From Desulfobacteraceae bacterium Eth-SRB2 (lineage in GTDB: Bacteria > Desulfobacterota > Desulfobacteria > Desulfobacterales > UBA11574), in contig RPGQ01000024.1 of assembly GCA_004193595.1 (NCBI GenBank), forward strand, positions 16,017 through 80,016: DNA of 64,000 bases, given 5' to 3'. The position numbers and the translations under genes are program-made. Shown in pieces: positions 3,258 through 51,620 of this stretch (positions within the stretch are counted from its first letter, which is position 1; every line of letters begins with the position of its first letter). Under the pieces are notes generated by a model. The model saw only the letters and a program-made list of their open reading frames with translations. It was not told the DNA's origin and did no database searches.

Positions 3258-3492
3258 ATAGGCGTTCACGGGTTCAAAGGTTCAGGGGTTCAAGGTTCCA
3301 TTCTTGTCCCCGGACTGCATTTGGGATGCGTATTTACGAGAAAAGCGTTAGTTTCGTCAGTCCTAATCCAAAATTTGAAGCTAAATTGGTAATTACTTGG
3401 GAAAATGAACATTTGTAACAAGGACTTTGGATCTTCAATGCCTTCTTTGTCATTAACCCTGAACGTTGAACCCTGAACCTGTGAACGGTTAC
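3258..3492. mobile_element. MITE family 1, copy A (about 235 bp, inverted relative to copies B/C)
   Basis: About 90% identical to the reverse complement of the elements at 45358-45590 and 48178-48411. Termini built from GTTCA(R)G repeats and end ...CCTGTGAACGGTTAC. Flanked by an 8-bp direct repeat GATTAAAG (3250-3257 and 3493-3500), consistent with a target-site duplication. The six-frame ORF 3140-3418 inside it is presumed spurious. Confidence 0.7.
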
Positions 3493-3504: not shown

Positions 3505-4410
3505 ATGTTAGATCCGAGGGTATTTTTTCGTTTAAATCTTATCGATATAACGGTAACTATGGAAACAGCACACACATTATTTAAAAAATTTATTACCGCT
3601 AAAACCCTGCCTCATGTTGCAATACGTCTGACCAAATTGATTTCTGATGAAAACAGCACCATGCAGGATTTTGAAAATATGATGAAGATGGATCCCACAC
3701 TGGTTTTACGCCTGCTGCGCGTAGTGAACAGCTCCTATTATGCATTGCGGCAAAAAGTCGACAGTATCTCCAGAGCCGTTGTCGTCATCGGTATGAATAA
3801 CCTGCGCAACATGATTGTTACAGAAGCGCTCAAGGATATATTCAAGGAAAGTCCGGGGGAAAGCGACTTTTCCAGAAACCGGTTGTGGCTTCATTGTGCT
3901 GCGGTCAGTATTTGCAGCCAAATGATTTCAGAGCGAATTTTTGGGCAAAACGGTGAAGATGCTTTTTTATGCGGAATTCTCCATGACATTGGAATGATCG
4001 TTGAAGATCAGACGGCACACGATTTATTTAACCATGCGTGTAAAGCCTATGCACAGGACTCCAGACCCATTATCCATCATGAAAAAGAAATTATCGGTAC
4101 CGACCACTGTGAGTTAGGACACCTTTTAGCTAAAGACTGGAAACTACCTTTTGAAGTGCAGGAGGGGATTAAGCAACACCATAAAGCTCTCAAAGAAGTC
4201 TCCCCTTCAAGCATTACCGGAATAATACAGATATCAGAATATATTGTATCTAAATTGGACTATACTGCCATGCCTGGAATGAATACCGTGCTTTCATCCC
4301 CTTTGGCTGCCCATATTCGTGAAAATGTTGAGGAATATAAAGCTCTGGTCAAAGATCTGCCTGATGAAATGTCAAGAGCCAGCGATCTTTATGAATCTCA
4401 AAAGGAGTAA
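3505..4410 (+). CDS. HDOD domain signalling protein
   Basis: HDOD signature region ([45 protein letters not shown]...[13 protein letters not shown]...[10 protein letters not shown]). ATG at 3505. An alternative start METAHTLF lies at 3559. Confidence 0.78.
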
Positions 4411-4415
4411 AGTTG

Positions 4416-6770
4416 ATGGATATTCCGGGAGATATCTTCAGTGAATTTGAAGACCAGAATACAGAATCAAAAAAATTTCTTTCCATGCTAAAAGAACGAA
4501 TGCCCGAGGGGTGTTTTGAACTTATTTTAAATCATAAAAGGAATGTTTCTTTAGGAGACAACCTGAATTTATCACTAAACGTCCGGGATGAAATTGTCAA
4601 TCGTACTAAAAAGGAAAACCGCATAACCCATATGAATTTGCCCGACGGACTTTTGGTTTATTCGACCGCTATCAATGAATTAGATGCGATATTGGCTTTT
4701 ACGTTATCAAAACAGAGTCCTGATTCATTTATAAAACAATATGGAGCACCCTTTATCCAATTATGCATCGAGCTTTTTCTTTCTCAAAATGCCCTTTGTG
4801 ACGAGAAAGAATTTATCAAAACTCAAAAAAACCAATACAACCGCAAAATCAGTGTGTTAGAAAAAAAATATCAAGAAATTATGGAGGATAATCACCGCGG
4901 GTATCAGATTATTCAAAAACAGCAAGAGGATTATTCACGAACCTTGAAATCTGAGATTTCACGGCAAACCGCCCAGCTCCGGGAAACCAATGTGAGTCTG
5001 AAGCAAGCACGAGAAGCCGCAGAAAGTGCCAATAAAGCCAAAAGCCAATTTCTTGCCAACATGAGCCACGAAATCCGCACTCCCATGAACGGAATTATAG
5101 GCTTTACCGAAATGCTCTTTGATACAGATCTTAACGAAACCCAGCTAAATTATGTTGAGACAATAAAGAGGAGTGGGGATGGTCTATTATCTTTAATCAA
5201 CGATATTCTCGATTTTTCCAAGATCGAAGCCGGAGAACTCGATTTTGAGAAAACGGACTTTGATCCGGAACTTGTTGCATATGATGTCTGTGAACTCATC
5301 CTTCCAAAAGTTCATTCAAAATCTATAGAGGTTCTCTGCAATATCGACAATAGCCTTCCTGCACTTGTCAAAGGAGATCCATTGCGATTTCAGCAAATCC
5401 TGATCAACCTGATGGGTAATGCAGCCAAGTTTACCGAATCAGGAGAAATTGAGCTTTTTTTGGATGTTGAAGATGAAAATGAGACCCAGGTAAAGCTTCA
5501 TGCAAAAATAAGAGACACCGGTATCGGCATAACCAAGGATAAGATTTCAACCATTTTTTCACCGTTCAACCAGGCTGACGGGTCCACATCAAGAAAATAT
5601 GGCGGTACAGGGCTGGGACTTTCAATATGCAAGCAAATTTCAAATATAATGCGTGGCGACGCCTGGGTAGAAAGCCCGGTCGATTGTCAATTGAAAATTG
5701 AAAATTGTCGATTTAAAAATAATATCAAAATCCAAAATAATCGTCAATCGTCAATCGTCAATCGTCAATGTAAGGGGGGTCCGGGAAGCACATTTCATTT
5801 CACTGCCTGGCTGGATAAAGCTGAAGGTAATAACGCCCGAAAATCCGCGCCATCATCACTCTCCGGTAAGAAGGTGCTCGTTTTTGACGACAACGCGACT
5901 GCTGTAAACATATTGAGCAATATGTTGACATGGGCGGGAATGAATGTAACTGCCCTGAAGAACAGCAACGATATCATACCAACACTCCGCAAGGCCATAG
6001 AAACCAAGAATCCGTTTGATCGTTGTATGTTAGGTATTCAAATTTCCGGCATCAGCGGCTATGAACTAGCAAAGCAGATTCGTAATGTTGAATCCCAAAT
6101 CAAAGATATAAAACGTGTTCCCGTGAATGCTGGAATACAACCTATTCATTTAATTGCATTATCTTATTTTCTGGATCATGATGCTCAAAAATGCAAAGAT
6201 GCGGGTTTTGACAATTCTTTGAGCAAACCGGTTCGCAGAGATAAGCTTTACCGGATGTTGGAAAAAAGTATTGGAATGGGGAATGCGGATTGCAAATTTC
6301 GGGATGCAAAAGATCATGACATTCAAAAACAAATAAAGAACCCATATTCAGTTCGTAATGAGATAGGGCCTACTCTGCGCATTCTTTTAGCAGAGGATAA
6401 CCCGGTCAATCAGAAACTGGCGAAGATGATGCTGACCAAAGCCGGTCATCAGGTAGAAACGGCCATTACAGGAAAAGAGGCCATTGAAAAATTCACAACT
6501 TCACCTGCAGATTTTGATCTGATTTTTATGGATATGCAGATGCCTGAAATGGATGGAACTGAAGCCACTCATCACATACGAAAATGGGAAAAATCCGCAA
6601 TCTGCAACCCAAAATCCGTAATTAAAAGGGTTCCGATTATCGCACTGACAGCAAATGCCATGAAGGAAGACCGGATAAAGTGTTTTAAATGTGGTATGGA
6701 TGATTATATTACAAAACCAATTAAAAGGGAGCTGCTATTTAAGACCGTCAAAAAATGGATATCAAATTAA
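4416..6770 (+). CDS. hybrid sensor histidine kinase with two C-terminal receiver domains
   Basis: HisKA H-box ([19 protein letters not shown]). HATPase_c N, G1 and G2 boxes ([12 protein letters not shown]). Two REC-like regions (VLVFDDN...; [18 protein letters not shown]...[12 protein letters not shown]). AAGGAG RBS 8 nt upstream of the ATG at 4416. The ORF-track start at 4413 is TTG. Confidence 0.85.
5684..5772 (+). repeat. AT-rich microsatellite insertion inside the kinase ATPase domain: (TTGAAAA)x2.5 and (AATCGTC)x4
   Basis: Directly visible: caattgaaaattgaaaattg, then aatcgtcaatcgtcaatcgtcaatcgtcaatg (5739-5766). Encodes a roughly 30-aa low-complexity loop ([32 protein letters not shown]) between the conserved ...WVESP and GGPGSTFHF segments. 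Confidence 0.75.
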
Positions 6771-6795
6771 AAAGTCTATAGCGTAAGGAGGTTCT

Positions 6796-7113
6796 ATGAA
6801 TTTCAGGAAATTATCGAAAAACTTAGGCCTGGAAGAAGAAGAATATATAGAGCTGTTTGAACTCTTTGTTGAGACCAGCATGGAAGATCTTAACAAACTT
6901 TGGTTTGCCATCGATATAGCAAGTACGGAGAAACTAGCCGGCATCGCCCATTCTTTAAAAGGCGCTTCCTTAAATATGGGATTGAACGAGTTTCAGGAAA
7001 TTGCAGAAGCAATTGGAAAGACAGCTCGTGACGGGCAACTGGAAAAAACTGCAGAACTCGCTAAAACATTACAGGAAAAACTGGATAACGTTGCCGGTAT
7101 TGTCGGGTGTTAA
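6796..7113 (+). CDS. Hpt (histidine phosphotransfer) domain protein
   Basis: 105 aa. Conserved phospho-His context AHSLKGASLNMGL. Strong RBS AAGGAGG. Confidence 0.8.
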   Translation: MNFRKLSKNLGLEEEEYIELFELFVETSMEDLNKLWFAIDIASTEKLAGIAHSLKGASLNMGLNEFQEIAEAIGKTARDGQLEKTAELAKTLQEKLDNVAGIVGC

Positions 7114-7144
7114 GCTTTTAGATTGAACTTTCTCAAAAGGATAT

Positions 7145-8662
7145 ATGGCTATGAAAAAAATACTGGTTGTGGATAATCATTCTTTGATGATCAAGTTTAT
7201 GAGCAAGTTACTTGAAAAAGAAGGTCATCAAGTATTGACGGCATCAGACGGTCTTTCCGCTCTTGAAATATTAAAAACTAATATTCCTGACGTAATATTT
7301 GCCGACCTTATCATGCCGAATATCGATGGAAAAAAGCTATGCCAGATCGTTCGGCAAATACCCGAACTTGAAGATGTTTTTATTGTTATTCTTTCTGCAA
7401 TTGCTGCCGAGGAGGAACCCCGTCTTGATGACTACGGCGCCGATGTCTGCATTGCAAAAGGACCTTTTAATAAAATGGCCGAGCATGTTCTTTTAGCTCT
7501 GGAGCTTTCAGACGCTGAACCCGCCCAAAAGTCTAAAAGAAAAATAATCGGACGACAAGAATTATTTAAACGAGAAATTACAGAGGAATTGTTGGCGTCC
7601 AAAAAACATTTTGAAGCAACGTTAAACAATATTTCCGAAGGGATCCTGGAACTTACTTCTGAATTAAAGATTGTTTACATAAATCCTGCTGCCCTCTCTA
7701 TTATTGGTATTCCTGAGGAAACCCTATTGTCTTCAGACTTCACAAAACTTTTCAATGAAAAACATCAAAAAAGAATTATAGATTCTCTTGAAAAGCCAGG
7801 CAATAAACAACGAATAATCAGCCCGAAAGCTCCGGTAGAACTTAACAATAAACAGATCACTTTAAATATCATACCCATCAAAGACGATAAGCACCATCCT
7901 ATTCTTATTATTCTAAAAGACGTCACTCAACGAAAACAAATGGAAGCACAACTTCAGCATGCCCAAAGGATGGAGGCCATAGGTACCCTGGCTGCCGGTG
8001 TTGCGCATGAGATAAATAATCCCATCAGCGGTGTCATGGGCTATGCCGAGATACTAAAAGACCGGTACCAAGAGCAAGGCCGAAATGACGATATTCCAGA
8101 TAAAATTATCAAAGAAGCGGAGCGCATTGCAGAAATTGTAAAAAACCTCCTTTCATTTTCCAGGGGTTGGCAGGAAGAAAGCAGTCCTGCACACATTAAA
8201 GATATCATTTCCAATACCCTTAGTATGATAAAAGGACGAATAGCAAAAGACGGCATAAAATTGTCTGTTGATGTTCCGGATAATCTTCCCGATATTAAAG
8301 CTCATTCCCATGAGATTCAACAGGTTTTTTTAAATATTCTCAGCAATGCACATTATGGTCTGAACCAACGTTTTCCTAAACCCAATCAAAATAAATCCCT
8401 TAAAATTGAAAGCCAGACAATCAAACTTGAAGACCAAAATTATGTTCGAACAACATTTTACGATAACGGTACAGGAATTCCAAAAAATGTTTTGAATAAA
8501 ATTTGTGATCCATTTTTTTCCACCAAACCTCCAGGCAATGGTACGGGGTTGGGCCTTTCCATCAGCCACGGCATAATTTATAATCAGGGTGGAAAACTCC
8601 TGTTTGAAAGTGTGGAAGGAGAGTACACAAAGGTTATGGTTGATCTGCCGGTAATTGGATAA
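7145..8662 (+). CDS. response regulator receiver - PAS - histidine kinase fusion
   Basis: N-terminal REC ([15 protein letters not shown]...[14 protein letters not shown]). PAS region. H-box [23 protein letters not shown]2 box [13 protein letters not shown]. Confidence 0.85.
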
Positions 8663-8749
8663 CAAATCGGAATTTTTATCCCACTATCACCCTAAAAAAG
8701 GTATATTAATCGTCAACCTGTAAAACTTTCAAATATAAAAACCTCATTC

Positions 8750-10483
8750 ATGAACCCATTGAACTCACGAAATATATTTCATTCCAACATTAAGAAATTA
8801 TTTGGAAAAATTCCAGATGATGATCGTATTACAATAGGCGAGCTCCTGAAACGAAAAGGCATTATTACCGAAAACCAACTCCGGAAAGCCCTAAAGGTAC
8901 AAAAAGAAAAACTCTATACCTTGGGCAAGGCCGTTCGATTGGGTCAAATCATCGTTGAACTCGGTTATGCATCGGAAGAAGAGCTGGTCAAGGCAGTAAA
9001 TATTGAATATCAGATTTCGGTTAAAACACTGGCAGACGACATTAAAGGGCTTGTCAAAGATAAACGCGGGAACTTTGTCGAAGGTCTTCCTCCACCCCGC
9101 ATCCCCATATGGCTTCAATCTTTTGCTGCAACCATGGTCATTATTATCACGACTATTTTTGTAATGAGCTTTTTTATGTTAAGCCAGCAAAAAGAAAGGC
9201 TTTACCGGCAAACCGTAAAGATCGGCAAGGTCAGCCTGAACTATTTTAGCAGCAATTCTCCCGTCCCCCTTCTGGAAGACAATATTTTAAGGCTCAATAC
9301 CTTAATTAAGGGGGCAACGGCTGTTGAAGGGCTTGTTTATGCCATCATCGTTGATCACAATCAGATCATAAAGGCACATACCGACATAAATAAAATCGGC
9401 AAGACCTTTGAAAAGTTCACGAACATGGAAGATGTGAAAAAAGAACAAGATGTTACTTACTTTAATTACTACTTAAAATCCGGCGAACATATTTTGAATT
9501 TAAATCGTCCTGTATTATTTAAAGGTAAAAACCTGGGTCAAGTCCATGTCGGAGTGTCCATCAATTTTATTGAAAAATTGATTTATAAAGCTCGTTTGAC
9601 AATTGTAGCGATAACATTTTTTATTATTCTGTTCGGGAGTGTAATTGCAGTATGGCTCGGATTCCATTTCTCCCGCCCCATTTCAAATCTTGTTATGGCA
9701 ACCGGTGAAATCGGATCAGGAAATTATCAGCACAAAATAATTCTGGCAAGAAATGACGAACTGGGAAACCTGGCCACCGCCTTTAACCGCATGGGAGACG
9801 AACTCTGGAAGAATTCTCTCATGCAGAAATCCTTTGGCAAATATATCGGTTCTGAAGTTCTTGAAATGATCCTGGCCAATCCTGAAAGTGCCTGGCTTAA
9901 AGGCCATAGGAATGAAGCCACCATCGTGTTCACCGATATCAGAGGATTTTCATTATATTCAAAGCTCAAGGAGCCTGAAGAAATCGTTGAAGGTCTAAAT
10001 GAATACTTTGAGATTGCCACACAGGCCATACAGGATCATGGCGGGTATGTGGATAAGTTTATCGGTGATGCGGTTCTTGGGGTTTTTGGGGTCCCGGTTT
10101 ATCACGAAAATCATGTGGAAAGGGGGTTACGGGCCGCCAGCGACATGCAGAAGAAGTTTACGAATAAACGATACAATGGAAACCGCCTCCTTCAATCTGT
10201 AGGTATCGCAATTCATTCCGGTATCGTTGTATCAGGTAATATCGGATCACAGGATAAAATGGAATATACGGTAATTGGTGATACGGTAAACCTGACGGCA
10301 CATCTGAACAGGCTTGCCAGGCCCGGAGAAATTATTATTACTAAAAGTGTTTATGAAAATCTTGAAGACATGATTACCGTAAAACCAATTTCTCCGCAAT
10401 ATATCAAAGGCAAAACAAAACCGGTTGAAACGTTTAAGTTGCTCAGCATAAAGGACAAGCCCAATGCAACCCTTAGCAAATAA
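8750..10483 (+). CDS. membrane-bound class III adenylate/guanylate cyclase with HAMP domain and an N-terminal T2SSE_N/MshEN-like domain
   Basis: N-terminal motif ITIGELLKRKGIITENQLRKALKVQKE...LGQIIVELGYASEEELVKAV. Two TM segments flank a periplasmic sensor region. HAMP (LATAFNRMGDEL). Cyclase homology domain (ATIVFTDIRGFS...FIGDAVLGVFGVP). Confidence 0.83.
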   Translation: MNPLNSRNIFHSNIKKLFGKIPDDDRITIGELLKRKGIITENQLRKALKVQKEKLYTLGKAVRLGQIIVELGYASEEELVKAVNIEYQISVKTLADDIKGLVKDKRGNFVEGLPPPRIPIWLQSFAATMVIIITTIFVMSFFMLSQQKERLYRQTVKIGKVSLNYFSSNSPVPLLEDNILRLNTLIKGATAVEGLVYAIIVDHNQIIKAHTDINKIGKTFEKFTNMEDVKKEQDVTYFNYYLKSGEHILNLNRPVLFKGKNLGQVHVGVSINFIEKLIYKARLTIVAITFFIILFGSVIAVWLGFHFSRPISNLVMATGEIGSGNYQHKIILARNDELGNLATAFNRMGDELWKNSLMQKSFGKYIGSEVLEMILANPESAWLKGHRNEATIVFTDIRGFSLYSKLKEPEEIVEGLNEYFEIATQAIQDHGGYVDKFIGDAVLGVFGVPVYHENHVERGLRAASDMQKKFTNKRYNGNRLLQSVGIAIHSGIVVSGNIGSQDKMEYTVIGDTVNLTAHLNRLARPGEIIITKSVYENLEDMITVKPISPQYIKGKTKPVETFKLLSIKDKPNATLSK

Positions 10484-21834: not shown

Positions 21835-22140
21835 TTTCAGATTGATATTAAAAACAAGTTAGTTCGCTTTGCCCCGCCTGCCATTGCAAGGCACGAGTGG
21901 GCAGGTCACAATTGGAATGTTGGAACACTGGAATATTGGGTTCTGGGAAAATGGAAAGTTGGGTTATTGCAAAATTTCTATTGACGGGAATTAAATAGAG
22001 GAATGTCATCTTCTTTAAATCATCATTCCATTATTCCATTATTCCATTATTCCATGTCCGAGTTAAAAGTATAAGCCTAAAAGATATCTTTAATTTCAAG
22101 AGATTGTAGAATTTCCAAGACGTTAAATTAACATTTTCGA
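21835..22140. repeat. intergenic repeat family 3, long copy (contains (CCATTATT)x3.5 tandem and degenerate TGGAA-like repeats)
   Basis: Shares ends with 44172-44311 (aagttagttcgct...cacaattggaatg / tccgagttaaaaRtataag.ctaaaa...aattaacat). Tandem cattccattattccattattccattattccatg at 22023-22056. Confidence 0.55.
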
Positions 22141-27694: not shown

Positions 27695-27742
27695 AATATT
27701 CCCCCCCGGATACGTTTACGTTTGAAATGATCTAAAGTTCCT

Positions 27743-27925
27743 GAACCGCAAATGCACACTAATGCACACATATAATATTTTTTAATTTGCGTGTATTCGT
27801 GTTCATTCGTGGTTAAAAAAGCCCTTTCATAACAGTGAGCTAAACTTCATAAACCGCAAATGCACACTAATGCACACATATAATATTTTTTAATTTGCGT
27901 GTATTCGTGTCCATTCGTGGTTAAC
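27743..27925. repeat. tandem duplication (2 x 74 nt, period 109 nt) of an imperfectly palindromic module in a divergent promoter region
   Basis: Units 27743-27816 and 27852-27925 differ at one position. Each reads aaccgcaaatgcacactaatgcacaca-TATAAT-attttttaatttgcgtgtattcgtgt(t/c)cattcgtggttaa: internal direct 9-mers (aatgcacac x2; attcgtg x2) around a perfect TATAAT. Confidence 0.7.
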
Positions 27926-45357: not shown

Positions 45358-45590
45358 GTATCCGTTCACGGGTTCAGGGTTCAACGTTCAGGGTTAAGGA
45401 CAAAAAAGCAATGAAGATCCGAAGTCCTCGTTACAAATGTTCATTTTTCCAAGTATTTGCCAATTTGGCTTCAAATTTTGGATTAGGCCTAACGAAACTG
45501 ACGCTTTTCTCGTAAATACGCATCCCAAATGTAGCCCGTGGACGAGAATGGAACCTTGAACCCCTGAACCTTTGAACCGTGAACGGTTAC
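45358..45590. mobile_element. MITE family 1, copy B (233 bp) at the 3' end of gyrA
   Basis: TIRs GTATCCGTTCACGG...CCGTGAACGGTTAC. 8-bp TSD AAATGATC on both sides. The gyrA TAA stop (45587-45589) lies within the terminal GGTTAC. Confidence 0.78.
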
Positions 45591-48022
45591 AAATGATCTT
45601 CCTTTTCCGCGAGCCGTGCAACACCGGCAACTTTTTCTTCGGGTGACAGCCCGATAAGCGTTACCCCCTGGGTGTTACGGCTGATCACAGAAATTTGGCT
45701 CACCGACATTCGTATCAGTTTTCCTGTATCGGCCATTAACATCAGGTCGTCGTCGTCATCAACCAACAGTATTGCCACGACCTGTCCGTTTCGCTTACTT
45801 GTCTTAATGGTAATGACACCCTTGCCCCCGCGTCTCTGGAGAGGATACTCATCAATTGAAGTTCTTTTCCCGTACCCGTTTTCCGTTGCCGCAAACAGGG
45901 TCTGGCCATGGCTTAGAACCTCCATGCCAACAATTCGGTCCCCTTTGGCAACCCTCAATCCGTGAACGCCCCTTGAGACACGGCCGCTCGGTCGAACGTC
46001 GGACTCGTGAAAGCGTATGGATTTGCCCGTGGCAGAACCTAAAAAGATATTCCGGGTCCCGTCTGTTATCCTTGCTGCAATCAATTCGTCACCCGGAACC
46101 AAGCTTAAAGCGATGATACCGCCGGATCTGGGTCTGGAAAACGCCATAAGATCCGTCTTTTTGACCAGTCCGTTTCGGGTTGCCATAATGATATAATACC
46201 CCGGCTCAAATACCGAGACATCAAGCACGGTAGTAAGTTTCTCATCCTTTCCCAGGTTAAGAAGATTAACGATTGCTTTTCCTCGGCTCATGCGGCCGGC
46301 CTGGGGAATATCGTACACTTTGCACCAGTAAACCCTTCCCTGGTTTGTAAAAAATAGAAACGTATGGTGGGTGGACGCCACAAAGAGATTCGCAATAAAA
46401 TCTTCATCCTTAACTCCCATGGCTGTCTTTCCTTTGCCACCGCGCTGCTGTTTCCGGTAAAGGGTAATGGGATTCCGTTTTATATAACCGCTTTTTGAAA
46501 TGGTGACAACCATGTCCTCTTCAACAATCATATCCTCAATGGTTATCTCTTTTGTTGATTCAACAATCTCAGTCCGTCGCTCATCACCATACTCTTGCTG
46601 TATTTGTGTAAGCTCGTCCTTGATAATATTTTTCACAAGACGCTCACTGCCTAAAATCTCTTTGTACCAGGCAATATCCTTGAGAGTATTCTTGTATTCT
46701 TCCAGAATTTTTTCCTGCTCCAAACCGGTAAGCCGCTGCAGACGCATATCCAGGATGGCCTGGGCCTGTATCACCGTCAGGTCGTATGTCCGAACCAGCC
46801 CTTTTTTGGCCTCGTCCGGCGATTTGGATTGGCGAATCAGAGATACGACATCATCAAGATTTTCAAGGGCGATTTTTAAGCCTTCCAGGATATGGGCCCG
46901 CGCTTCAGCCTTTTTCAGGTCATATCGGGTCCGGCGGATAATAATCTCCCTGCGGTGAAGAATGAAATGCTCAAGAATCTTTTTCAAAGAGAGTTGTTGG
47001 GGCTGGTTGTTCACAATGGCAAGAAAAATGATGCCGAAGCTGTTTTCCATCCGCGTGTGCTTGAAAAGCTGATTAATGATCACCTCCGCAAACTGATCTT
47101 TTTTCAGCCCCACCGCGATCCGCATACCTTCCCGGTCCGACTCATCCCTTATATATCGTACCCCTTCGACCTGCTTTTTTCTTATCAGGTCCGCAATTTT
47201 TTCGATAAGTTTTGCCTTGTTCACCTGATAAGGAAGCTCCGTGACAACGATTGTCTCTCTTCCTGTCCTTTTGTCTTTTTCGATCACGGCTCTCGCCCTG
47301 ATTCGGATGATGCCCCGACCGGTTGTATATGCGTCATAAATTCCTTTGGTGCCGTAAATAATACCGGCAGTGGGAAAGTCAGGGCCCGGGATATAAGCCA
47401 AAAGGTCTTGAGATGTTAGATCAGGATCATCTATGACTGCCTTTGTGGCTTCAATGACTTCAAAAAGATTATGAGGCGGGATGTTGGTGGCCATACCAAC
47501 GGCGATACCCGAAGAACCGTTTATTAAGAGGTTGGGGGCTTTGGCCGGAAGTACACAAGGCTCTGTCAAAGAATCATCATAATTCGGCACAAACTCAACG
47601 GTTTCCTTATCCAGGTCCTCCATCATCTCATGAGCCAAACGCATCATTCTGACTTCAGTATACCTCATTGCAGCCGGAGGGTCGCCATCCACGGAACCAA
47701 AATTGCCCTGGCCGTCTACAAGAGGATACCGTAAAGAAAAATCCTGGGCCATCCGTACAATGGTATCATAAACCGCAGTATCACCATGGGGATGATATTT
47801 ACCGATAACATCACCGACGATGCGGGCGGATTTTTTATACGCTTTGTTATAATCGTTTTTAAGCTCTCGCATTGCAAAGAGTATGCGTCTGTGGACGGGT
47901 TTCAGGCCGTCGCGCACTTCCGGGAGTGCTCTCCCGATGATGACACTCATGGCATAATCGAGATACGACTTTTTCATCTCGCTCTCGATACTGATCTGAG
48001 CCAACTTTTCTGTATTCAACAT
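45587..48022 (-). CDS. gyrA: DNA gyrase subunit A
   Basis: [29 protein letters not shown]. Active-site Tyr region and C-terminal beta-pinwheel repeats. 811 aa. Confidence 0.93.
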
Positions 48023-48177
48023 ATTAAACCACCCGCCTGAACCTTGAACCTTTGAACCCTATACGGTTAAGGGTTAGTATTTTTGTAAGTGTTCACAGAT
48101 TTTTTAAAATCACAAATTACAAGCACCAAATTTCAAATAAATTCCAAATGCCAATAACCTAAACTATTTCTATTTTT

Positions 48178-48411
48178 GTATCCGTTCACGGGTTCAGGGT
48201 TCAACGTTCAGGGTTAAGGACAAAAAAAGCAATGAAGATCCGAAGTCCTCGTTACAAATGTTCATTTTTCCAAGTATTTGCCAATTTGGCTTCAAATTTT
48301 GGATTAGGCCTAACAAAACTGACGCTTTTCTCGTAAATACGCATCCCAAATGTAGCCCGTGGACGAGAATGGAACCTTGAACCCCTGAACCTTTGAACCG
48401 TGAACGGTTAC
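48178..48411. mobile_element. MITE family 1, copy C (234 bp), 156 bp upstream of gyrA
   Basis: Same orientation as copy B and over 98% identical to it. 8-bp TSD CTATTTTT. Confidence 0.78.
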
Positions 48412-51256: not shown

Positions 51257-51620
51257 GGGGGCGAAACGGCTTCGACGGGGATAAAGAAGCATCGGCTGCA
51301 TGCCAAGCTCCTGCCGGCTTGTAAAAAAGGCGGGAAACTTAAAGTAATCGCAGACGATTATAATTACGCTTTAGCCGCTTAAGGCTAACGTCCTACCGGA
51401 TTATTCCTGCGCATCCGGCAAGGGCGTCGACAAGCAGGATAGCCGGTCCCGATATCCCGTTAACGGATCGGTCCTGCAGGCGGCTTTTGCGAAGGTTATG
51501 GGTTTCAGGCGATTGCGTCCGCACTCTTTTATCATCTATCTTGTTATCGTTTTCGGAGATCAGGTATTGCATTTCAATACAAAACAAGCCTTCCAGTAAA
51601 GGCGGAGTTTGATCAAAACA
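51257..51620 (+). ncRNA. ssrA: tmRNA-like (ssrA) sequence; 5' acceptor/TLD half and tag ORF recognisable, 3' T-arm/CCA not found
   Basis: GGGGGCGAAACGGCUUCGACGGGG 5' consensus. Tag reading frame gca gac gat tat aat tac gct tta gcc gct taa (51350-51382) encodes ADDYNYALAA*. The 3' end is approximate. Confidence 0.55.

Follow-up and report, generated by a model that had tools for sequence, protein, structure and literature searches.

Simple-repeat mutations that switch genes ON and OFF are textbook biology of host-adapted pathogens, and to our knowledge hardly any are documented from environmental bacteria that are free-living and uncultured. A hybrid histidine kinase gene of Desulfobacteraceae bacterium Eth-SRB2, which we take to be the sulfate-reducing partner in an ethane-oxidising seep enrichment, raises the question of whether a switch of this kind can reside in such an organism, as the gene carries an array of the heptanucleotide AATCGTC in the part that encodes its ATP-binding domain. 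We analysed the gene within a 64-kb stretch of contig RPGQ01000024.1 (the window; positions refer to it unless a contig is named) and compared it with related loci in metagenome contigs. Judged from this comparison, the array is probably a hypermutable slipped-strand site, yielding natural ON alleles (reading frame kept), OFF alleles (reading frame lost) and length alleles.

Heptamer arrays in the kinase gene and their natural alleles

The kinase gene (4413-6770, plus strand) encodes 785 aa comprising an N-terminal domain of unknown function, HisKA, HATPase_c and two receivers. With the ATG at 4416 as its start it specifies the 784-aa NCBI protein RZB35873.1, and its open reading frame (ORF) matches a protein of Desulfobacteraceae bacterium Eth-SRB2 at 100% identity. 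An AT-rich in-frame insert (5679-5774, plus strand; aa 423-454) runs from the WVES strand to GGPGSTF, as delimited by the ortholog alignment and the DNA of the alleles; positions 5680-5775 read GTCGATTGTCAATTGAAAATTGAAAATTGTCGATTTAAAAATAATATCAAAATCCAAAATAATCGTCAATCGTCAATCGTCAATCGTCAATGTAAG. Within it, all on the plus strand, a left array of five degenerate heptamers (5680-5714; TCGATTG TCAATTG AAAATTG AAAATTG TCGATTT) is separated by an A-rich spacer (5715-5738) from the right array, (AATCGTC)x4.4 at 5739-5769, which Tandem Repeats Finder scored at 62 with a 100% match and which would be the main slippage site. Part of the left array was detected by the same program as a perfect (AATTGAA)x2.7 repeat (5689-5707, 100% match). 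Both tracts lie in coding sequence, and for both the unit length of 7 nt is no multiple of three. The right array encodes aa 443-452, inside HATPase_c, three AATCGTC units giving the heptad NRQSSIV, whereas a third AATTGAA unit in the left array introduces an in-frame TGA.

A preliminary description of this DNA had reported an in-frame heptamer repeat within an AT-rich insertion of roughly 90 nt. The repeat was confirmed with Tandem Repeats Finder and ORF 4413-6770, and the insertion is likewise real: the GC fraction drops to 0.30 at 5690-5779 compared to 0.44-0.50 in the flanks, and between fixed anchors, the downstream one being FHFT, the window measures 200 nt and the shortest ortholog 122 nt, an extra segment of 78 nt. 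We put the size of the insert at 78-90 nt, in frame. The array is also far above the shuffled-sequence expectation. The 64-kb window contains no second perfect run of three or more heptamers, and the 14-mer AATCGTCAATCGTC, allowing at most 2 mismatches, was found 5 times against 0.67 expected, with 3 exact occurrences, all within the array. The same description had pointed out that an overlapping ORF at 5698-5907 (plus strand), which would be entered after a frameshift in the array, keeps the alternative frame open. That ORF is present and is without independent support as a gene, and a natural frameshifted allele, P0227, ends in its frame.

Across related metagenome contigs the right array was found with 1, 2, 3, 4, 5 or 10 units and the left array with 2 or 3 (allele lengths are given as nucleotides between the fixed anchors). 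The window allele of 200 nt with 4 right units is shared by contig L014; L277-L279 have the same length with 4 CATCGTC-type units, and L091 has 4 units in a contig that starts in the left array, so that its length is not measurable. All of these are ON. So are the alleles that differ from the window by multiples of three units, namely L212-L214 with 1 unit (179 nt, three fewer) and L001-L006 with 10 units (242 nt, six more), as predicted for three-unit changes in the preliminary description. Two shorter alleles are also ON: L008 and L010 (143 nt) have lost the left arm and kept the right array, and L013 (122 nt) has lost all but one unit. In contrast, 2 units in L007 (186 nt), 3 units in L088 (193 nt), 5 units in L090 (207 nt) and, in L089 (214 nt), 3 left units with the in-frame TGA together with 5 right units are OFF. 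In these four contigs the gene is called as two ORFs, a kinase fragment of 430-495 aa and a receiver ORF of 306-353 aa, which is the separation of both receivers that had been foreseen for the gain or loss of one unit; the rest of the gene is intact, and in-frame alleles encode 755-799 aa. The three-unit left array of L089 was independently confirmed in L280. Alleles that retain both arrays (179-242 nt) differ only by multiples of 7 nt, inside the arrays, whereas the 143- and 122-nt alleles have lost larger blocks, of 57 and 78 nt, in frame. The window's own protein cluster, drawn at 90% identity or above, contains alleles of 784 aa and 777 aa. A 338-aa protein with its start inside the repeat (P0180) was considered as a further split allele and rejected, because its contig simply begins in the left array.

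The changes are recent. L007 and L088, from runs with adjacent accession numbers, differ by 1 substitution and one 7-nt unit over 3.87 kb, and L090 and L001 are 100% identical over 6.4 kb apart from a 35-nt (5-unit) array indel, so that across 10.2 kb of near-clonal pairs a single substitution stands beside two array indels. Furthermore, the window and L212 have diverged by 2.3% over 9.3 kb with two indels only, one of exactly three AATCGTC units at 5739 and one of 1 nt in an intergenic spacer. Array changes thus appear to occur on the scale of single substitutions per several kb. The preliminary description had named repeat-number heterogeneity between strains as the check on its proposal, and one shared repeat number in relatives as the outcome that would speak against it; we found differing unit numbers in otherwise almost identical backgrounds, and 1-10 right units among relatives. 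Out-of-frame alleles are confined to the tips of the tree and all fixed differences between lineages are in frame, the pattern expected if slippage constantly generated null alleles that selection purged in the long term or that reverted.

Place of the insert in the kinase and its history

The protein has the features of a hybrid histidine kinase, with HisKA (PF00512, 1.4e-24), HATPase_c (PF02518, 4.7e-24) carrying N, G1, F and G2 motifs, and receivers (PF00072, 4.5e-38, two stretches). Along the ATP-binding domain the order is N box, G1 (DTGIGI), F (FSPFNQAD), G2 (GGTGLGL, aa 397-403), a helix, the strand DAWVES up to aa 421, and then the insert, which begins 17 residues past G2 and ends at GGPGSTF. 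In histidine kinases the ATP lid is a loop that lies beyond G1 and runs from the F to the G2 box. Since the insert starts only after G2 and the WVES strand, it is not in the ATP lid; it occupies the last beta-hairpin of HATPase_c, directly before the GxGS/T motif. Three lines of evidence agree on this position: the match to the Pfam HATPase_c profile breaks off at aa 423 (position 97 of 111), solved kinases (7z8n, HK853 2c2a and others) align only as far as WVES, and an AlphaFold model places residues 421-459, with a predicted local distance difference test score (pLDDT) below 50, between strands 417-420 and 460-468. The model was built from 37 close orthologs, its kinase core is poor (mean pLDDT 61.8), and it was used for the order of secondary structure only. 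Thus, the earlier placement between G2 and the GxGSTF motif stands, and the assignment to the ATP-lid region does not. The catalytic GHKL domain tolerates 0-48 extra residues in this last hairpin.

Orthologs were gathered by exact-protein look-ups, a scan of metagenomes being swamped by a generic receiver motif, MDMQMPEM (9 of 80 loci orthologous). The kinase family proved to be well populated in Desulfobacterales metagenomes, and in an alignment of 37 sequences the kinase core is essentially gap-free save at the site of the insert. On a neighbour-joining tree computed without the insert columns, the 34-residue state of the insert is ancestral to the orthologous family, being present down to 58-60% identity. 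The insertion had been expected to be lineage-specific; the orthologs contradict this and indicate many secondary shortenings. On the same tree, at least 8 independent in-frame changes of insert length, shortening or lengthening, were counted, and one deletion junction, VDCQC, arose at least 2 times independently; in the DNA of L013 this junction is an exact deletion between directly repeated GTCAAT words. In the clades at about 58% identity, two contigs, L011 and L012, keep the 200-nt length of the window with degenerate repeats.

The kinase gene belongs to a conserved operon context (3505-10483, plus strand), identified from ORFs and Pfam annotation of syntenic orthologous loci. In the window, the neighbours on the same strand encode an HDOD protein (3505-4410), an Hpt protein (6796-7113), a receiver-PAS-kinase (7145-8662) and an sCache-HAMP-nucleotide cyclase (8750-10483); among orthologous loci the order GntR regulator, HDOD, kinase, Hpt, receiver-PAS-kinase, sCache-HAMP-nucleotide cyclase is kept. 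A second, degenerate heptamer tract (AATCCGC AATCTGC AACCCAA AATCCGT AATTAAA; 6602-6636, plus strand) lies in the same kinase gene, in a loop of receiver domain 2. At this site distant orthologs (P0029, P0030, P0035 and P0038) carry an insert of 25-45 residues that includes FSIVNRQSS and is encoded by a perfect TCAATCGTCAATCGTCAA, seen at positions 5218-5235 of L012.

Slippage, selection and the rival explanations

We propose that an old, low-complexity insert of heptanucleotide arrays occupies a surface hairpin loop of the ATP-binding domain, and that both the left (AATTGAA-type) and the right (AATCGTC) array act as hotspots of slipped-strand mispairing. Replication would add or drop whole 7-nt units, and larger deletions would arise between the directly repeated GTCAAT words. 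A unit change that is not a multiple of three would shift the frame, a third AATTGAA unit would supply a TGA stop, and either event would end the protein within the catalytic domain, before the last beta-strand and both receivers, giving a presumably non-functional (OFF) kinase; changes of three or six units, or the in-frame deletions of 57 and 78 nt, would merely resize the loop (ON). Slippage as the mutational process and loss of kinase function in OFF alleles are inferences from sequence. At the sequence level, the locus combines the attributes of a contingency locus: an out-of-phase unit, copy-number polymorphism among strains, and ON and OFF products. The earlier suggestion of a candidate slipped-strand, length-variable site is strengthened by the whole 7-nt unit changes seen in nature, which go beyond what the single sequence could offer.

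The near-clonal comparisons bear on how fast the arrays mutate. As arrays turn over on a scale of single substitutions per several kb, their per-locus indel rate would lie, by a rough estimate, orders of magnitude above the per-site background. For the heptanucleotide of pflu0185, 2 copies raise the frameshift rate about 150-fold further and 6 copies more than 10^4-fold (10.1101/2024.05.01.592015), and our rough estimate for the kinase array would agree with these measured rates. Several points weigh against the slippage reading. The near-clonal pairs were found via proteins of odd length, and the rate estimate is accordingly selection-biased. The window allele has only 4 units, which is short for a classical contingency tract, and as many as 22 contigs, drawn from several samples, have one and the same 10-unit allele, which argues against very fast switching, with the qualification that exact-sequence look-up favours identical copies. 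The OFF alleles may be deleterious variants or young pseudogenes. The arrays have been lost entirely in several lineages (L013, P0022 and P0023), as would be expected if the tract were a liability and not an asset. Finally, two OFF alleles are open to question as assemblies: L090 lacks one copy of a 35-nt internal duplication with perfect tracts of about 31 nt, which could be a collapse, and the coverage of L089 is low (5.9x).

Granted that the arrays slip, a further proposal is that they are maintained as a selected contingency locus and are more than a hotspot that the gene tolerates; in such a locus reversible ON/OFF switching of the phosphorelay, perhaps with graded loop length, benefits the lineage in fluctuating seeps. 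We consider this a real possibility that falls somewhat short of probable. The arrays are perfect or nearly so in lineages whose flanks differ by 9-15%, the insert has been kept across more than 40% protein divergence, and a single clade of at least 97% identity holds three OFF states (2 right units, 3 right units, and 3 left with 5 right units) together with an ON state in a gene that is otherwise intact. Moreover, NeuO follows the same logic with a heptanucleotide unit (PMC3046976), and a signalling gene has gained a contingency locus of this kind de novo under laboratory conditions (10.1101/2024.05.01.592015). Against selection stand the shortness of the tract, the repeated loss of the arrays and their degeneration in the more distant L011 and L012, and the nature of the host, an uncultured, slow-growing syntroph for which bet-hedging by such a route is undocumented. 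Should switching prove real and selected, the phosphorelay, which feeds a nucleotide cyclase, would vary heritably and reversibly within seep populations, and this variation could be read directly from repeat counts at the level of sequencing reads.

The arrays are not peculiar to this kinase. A scan for (AATCGTC)3 in one genome per species turned up arrays with three or more units in at least 120 species-representative genomes (L092-L211) of Acidobacteriota, Chloroflexota, Bacteroidota, Planctomycetota and other phyla. Among the matches listed, to which the counts in this and the following sentences refer, 73 of 127 arrays (58%) lie in open frames of at least 150 aa, and the seven arrays that were checked fall inside Pfam domains: GlyS-beta, PolA exonuclease, two AMP-binding enzymes, a Kdo transferase, a polysaccharide deacetylase and a second, unrelated HATPase_c. 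Within 150 nt, 31 of the 127 arrays (24%) have an inverted partner that resembles (GACGATT)3, compared to 3 in far-flank controls, and 23 of the 127 form inverted pairs in the order seen in the window, with loops of 8-92 nt that are unrelated in sequence. Period 7 accounts for 204 arrays, versus 1, 1, 18 and 3 for the other periods from 5 to 9. Many other motifs in these array loci share the AATC core, and what is common to arrays in unrelated genes is the heptamers alone, with no full element. In viral contigs (L215-L251), (AATCGTC)3 was found in 37 stretches and (AATCATC)3 in 22, while three composition-matched scrambles gave 1, 2 and 0; the AATCGTC motif is at least 18-fold commoner there than the scrambles. 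At the protein level, a search for (NRQSSIV)n in 5.8 billion proteins returned only tiny hypothetical ORFs of 34-79 aa, arrays of 3-4 units being too short to score. Heptameric repeats are described as over-represented in bacteria and little studied (Mrazek 2007, as cited in PMC4679880); known examples are GGGAATC/GGGGATT heptamers in Xanthomonas and Nostoc (PMC4692102) and TAACTGA in Beggiatoaceae (PMC4679880).

Two loci outside the kinase family were seen in the course of the scan. L169, from a Saprospiraceae metagenome-assembled genome (MAG; JADJYH010000046.1), has its array at 1088-1108 on the minus strand, in the gene of an unrelated histidine kinase with an in-frame hairpin of inverted heptamer arrays (ACGATTG ACGACTG ACGATTT ACGATTG, loop, CAATCGT x4); this hairpin sits in another loop of HATPase_c than the insert of the Eth-SRB2 kinase, between the N-box strand and G1, and the Pfam match spans it. 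L109, from a Pyrinomonadaceae MAG, contains at 89-153 an intergenic perfect hairpin, (AATCGTC)3-loop-(GACGATT)3, flanked by an A-run and a T-run. It resembles a bidirectional intrinsic terminator, and some arrays may serve as terminators. The kinase insert might be one instance of an undescribed cross-phylum class of AATC-core arrays (AATCGTC, AATCATC and others) that are seeded or spread by a sequence-specific process, often as inverted-array hairpins around unrelated loops, colonise surface loops of conserved proteins in the stop-free orientation and persist as frameshift and length switches, being long kept in the kinase because ON/OFF toggling is useful to seep syntrophs. Taken as a whole, this is a speculative idea to which we give a small probability, and the broader question that it addresses is why AATC-core heptamer arrays recur within conserved genes across phyla.

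An improbable reading, in our judgement, takes the insert for the relic of a small palindromic mobile element that landed in frame, of the type of a miniature inverted-repeat transposable element (MITE) or a Rickettsia palindromic element, and explains the length variation by its decay or partial excision and not by slippage. The left and right arrays are 77% complementary over 26 nt, yet 71% similar in direct orientation, and the arms can be read equally well as direct degenerate copies. The insert folds modestly better than shuffled sequence (z -2.4 to -2.6). The layout of GACGATT-like array, loop and AATCGTC array recurs in the 23 of 127 arrays of other phyla and inside the HATPase_c domain of the L169 kinase, but the loops are unrelated in sequence. 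In-frame palindromic elements are documented in Rickettsia (PMC10969869), and the window itself contains a MITE-like family with short tandem arrays as terminal repeats; however, a blastn search of the 64-kb window and the related loci located the 105-nt element at the orthologous site only, and neither a target-site duplication nor a link to a transposase was found. Alleles with both arrays differ by whole heptamers within the arrays, a signature of slippage, and L008 and L010 retain the right array although their left arm is gone. This observation also fails to support a conserved hairpin in RNA or DNA, and Rfam gave no family match at the locus. The insert is best regarded as an old example of these heptamer arrays that arrived, or expanded, in a loop able to tolerate it.

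The MITE-like family consists of three intergenic copies of about 232 bp that are 92-99% identical (45360-45592 and 48180-48411 on the plus strand, 3263-3488 on the minus strand), with a partial arm at 48038-48069. Short tandem arrays make up its terminal inverted repeats, GTTCACG GGTTCAGG GTTCAAC GTTCAGG ... CCTTGAACC CCTGAACC TTTGAACC GTGAACGG. The copy at 3263-3488 sits between the GntR gene and the HDOD-kinase operon and had no match in the related loci searched, including L212, which spans that spacer. Other features of the window are a transfer-messenger RNA gene (51265-51558, plus strand; Rfam RF00023, 56.2 bits, E 2.3e-19), a 108-nt unit repeated 1.8 times (94% match) at 27728-27924 with AATGCACACT sub-repeats, and an octamer array, CATTATTC x4.4 (96% match), at 22021-22055.

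If the peptide mattered and the DNA repeat were incidental, the NRQSSIV heptads would form a functional loop whose length tunes kinase activity. NeuO activity does scale with heptad number (PMC3046976), and the insert lies next to the nucleotide pocket, at its GxGS/T motif. Most pairs of sequences are at least as similar at the nucleotide level within the insert as in 600 nt of the coding sequence around it, and the overall substitution rate of the insert is below that of flanking third codon positions (p 0.003-0.008, from small numbers). A faster evolution of the insert than of its flanks was thereby rejected, the insert being conserved equally or more, without a codon-position signature. There is no excess of third-position changes; changes are spread evenly over codon positions and are mostly non-synonymous, so that the peptide looks unconstrained, yet the nucleotides change slowly. 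AT-richness at mutational equilibrium, homogenisation of the arrays or a role at the nucleotide level are possible reasons for the slow change. In addition, the loop has been deleted wholly or partly at least 8 times in otherwise intact orthologs, and the model confidence at the insert is very low. Together, these data leave a functional peptide loop an improbable account. A separate observation concerns L088 and L007, whose inserts differ from that of L089 by 17% while the flanks (600 nt) differ by only 1.3%; the L088-type insert peptide, IENRGLQNSSNIQNN, resembles that of distant orthologs (P0049, IENRQLQDSSKTENN). Recombination or gene conversion at the insert site is a likely cause of this anomaly of the L088/L007 lineage.

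Some contigs (L091 and L280) are broken off at the array, and together with the doubts about L089 and L090 raised above this could mean that length and out-of-frame alleles are short-read assembly artefacts over a tandem repeat whose true unit number is fixed. However, the in-frame length alleles are fixed in many independent assemblies and lie on long contigs (260 kb for L212, 102 kb for L001). In L007 and L088, the tracts of 2 and 3 units contain an interruption (CATCGTC) and span 14-21 nt, shorter than k=31; as they are far below the assembler k, k-mer collapse does not explain them. Furthermore, the three-unit left array appears in two independent assemblies (L089 by SPAdes, L280 by Logan), the 5-unit allele comes from a k=141 assembly and from two contigs, and the OFF alleles derive from three assemblers (Logan, MEGAHIT k141 and SPAdes). 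We consider a purely artefactual origin very unlikely. An intein, an intron or a programmed frameshift was rejected, as there are no splicing motifs and whole-unit indels explain every variant.

Comparison with known repeat switches

With slippage as the preferred reading, the closest parallel is the poly-psi variable-number tandem repeat of NeuO in the Escherichia coli K1 prophage CUS-3, an in-coding heptanucleotide (AAGACTC) that slips by single units and in which full length requires a copy number that keeps the frame, 3 units making one 7-residue heptad (PMC3046976). The kinase alleles follow the same rule, those with 1, 4 and 10 units being ON and those with 2, 3 and 5 units OFF. The NeuO tract, however, begins two bases past the start codon, forms an N-terminal extension and ranges from 2 to 93 copies, and its high-frequency switching and graded activity have been shown experimentally (PMC3046976), whereas the kinase tract, known from its sequenced alleles, is not at the 5' end but internal to HATPase_c (1-10 copies).

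The preliminary description had called such a site inside a sensor kinase unusual, and here precedents speak otherwise: in bvgS of Bordetella pertussis, through a C-tract, and in flgS/flgR of Campylobacter jejuni, repeat change truncates the sensor kinase and turns the regulon off (PMC1891110, PMC3930126). Those tracts are mononucleotide repeats of host-adapted pathogens with demonstrated phase variation; the present one is a heptanucleotide in an uncultured, free-living or syntrophic marine sulfate reducer. In pflu0185 of Pseudomonas fluorescens SBW25, gain and loss of the heptanucleotide GGTGCCC in a cyclic di-GMP signalling gene likewise cause reversible frameshifts, and 2-6 copies already give 10^2- to 10^4-fold local hypermutation (10.1101/2024.05.01.592015). 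The pflu0185 locus evolved in SBW25, whereas the kinase locus is natural, ancient and internal.

With the heptameric simple sequence repeat families of bacteria the kinase arrays share period 7, the typical 3-4 units, the occasional inverted arrangement and, with GGGAATC, the AATC core; in both, stop codons on the reverse strand restrict how an array can be oriented within a gene. Those families lie mostly between genes and are numerous in a given genome, whereas here a single array lies in a catalytic domain, within a heptamer-poor segment. Rickettsia palindromic elements resemble the insert as short, hairpin-capable elements that are tolerated for long, in frame, in a surface loop of a conserved protein (PMC10969869). 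They differ in measuring about 150 bp, in having many copies per genome and in conserving a family sequence, while the kinase insert, which had no second copy in the window or the related loci, shares only its heptamer arrays with look-alikes elsewhere. Public metagenomes alone thus provide, for a signalling kinase of the sulfate-reducing partners in hydrocarbon-seep consortia, a natural allele series that includes apparent null alleles in near-clonal backgrounds, and they reveal a site that is of a known kind among repeat switch loci and new in its host type and in its position in the protein.

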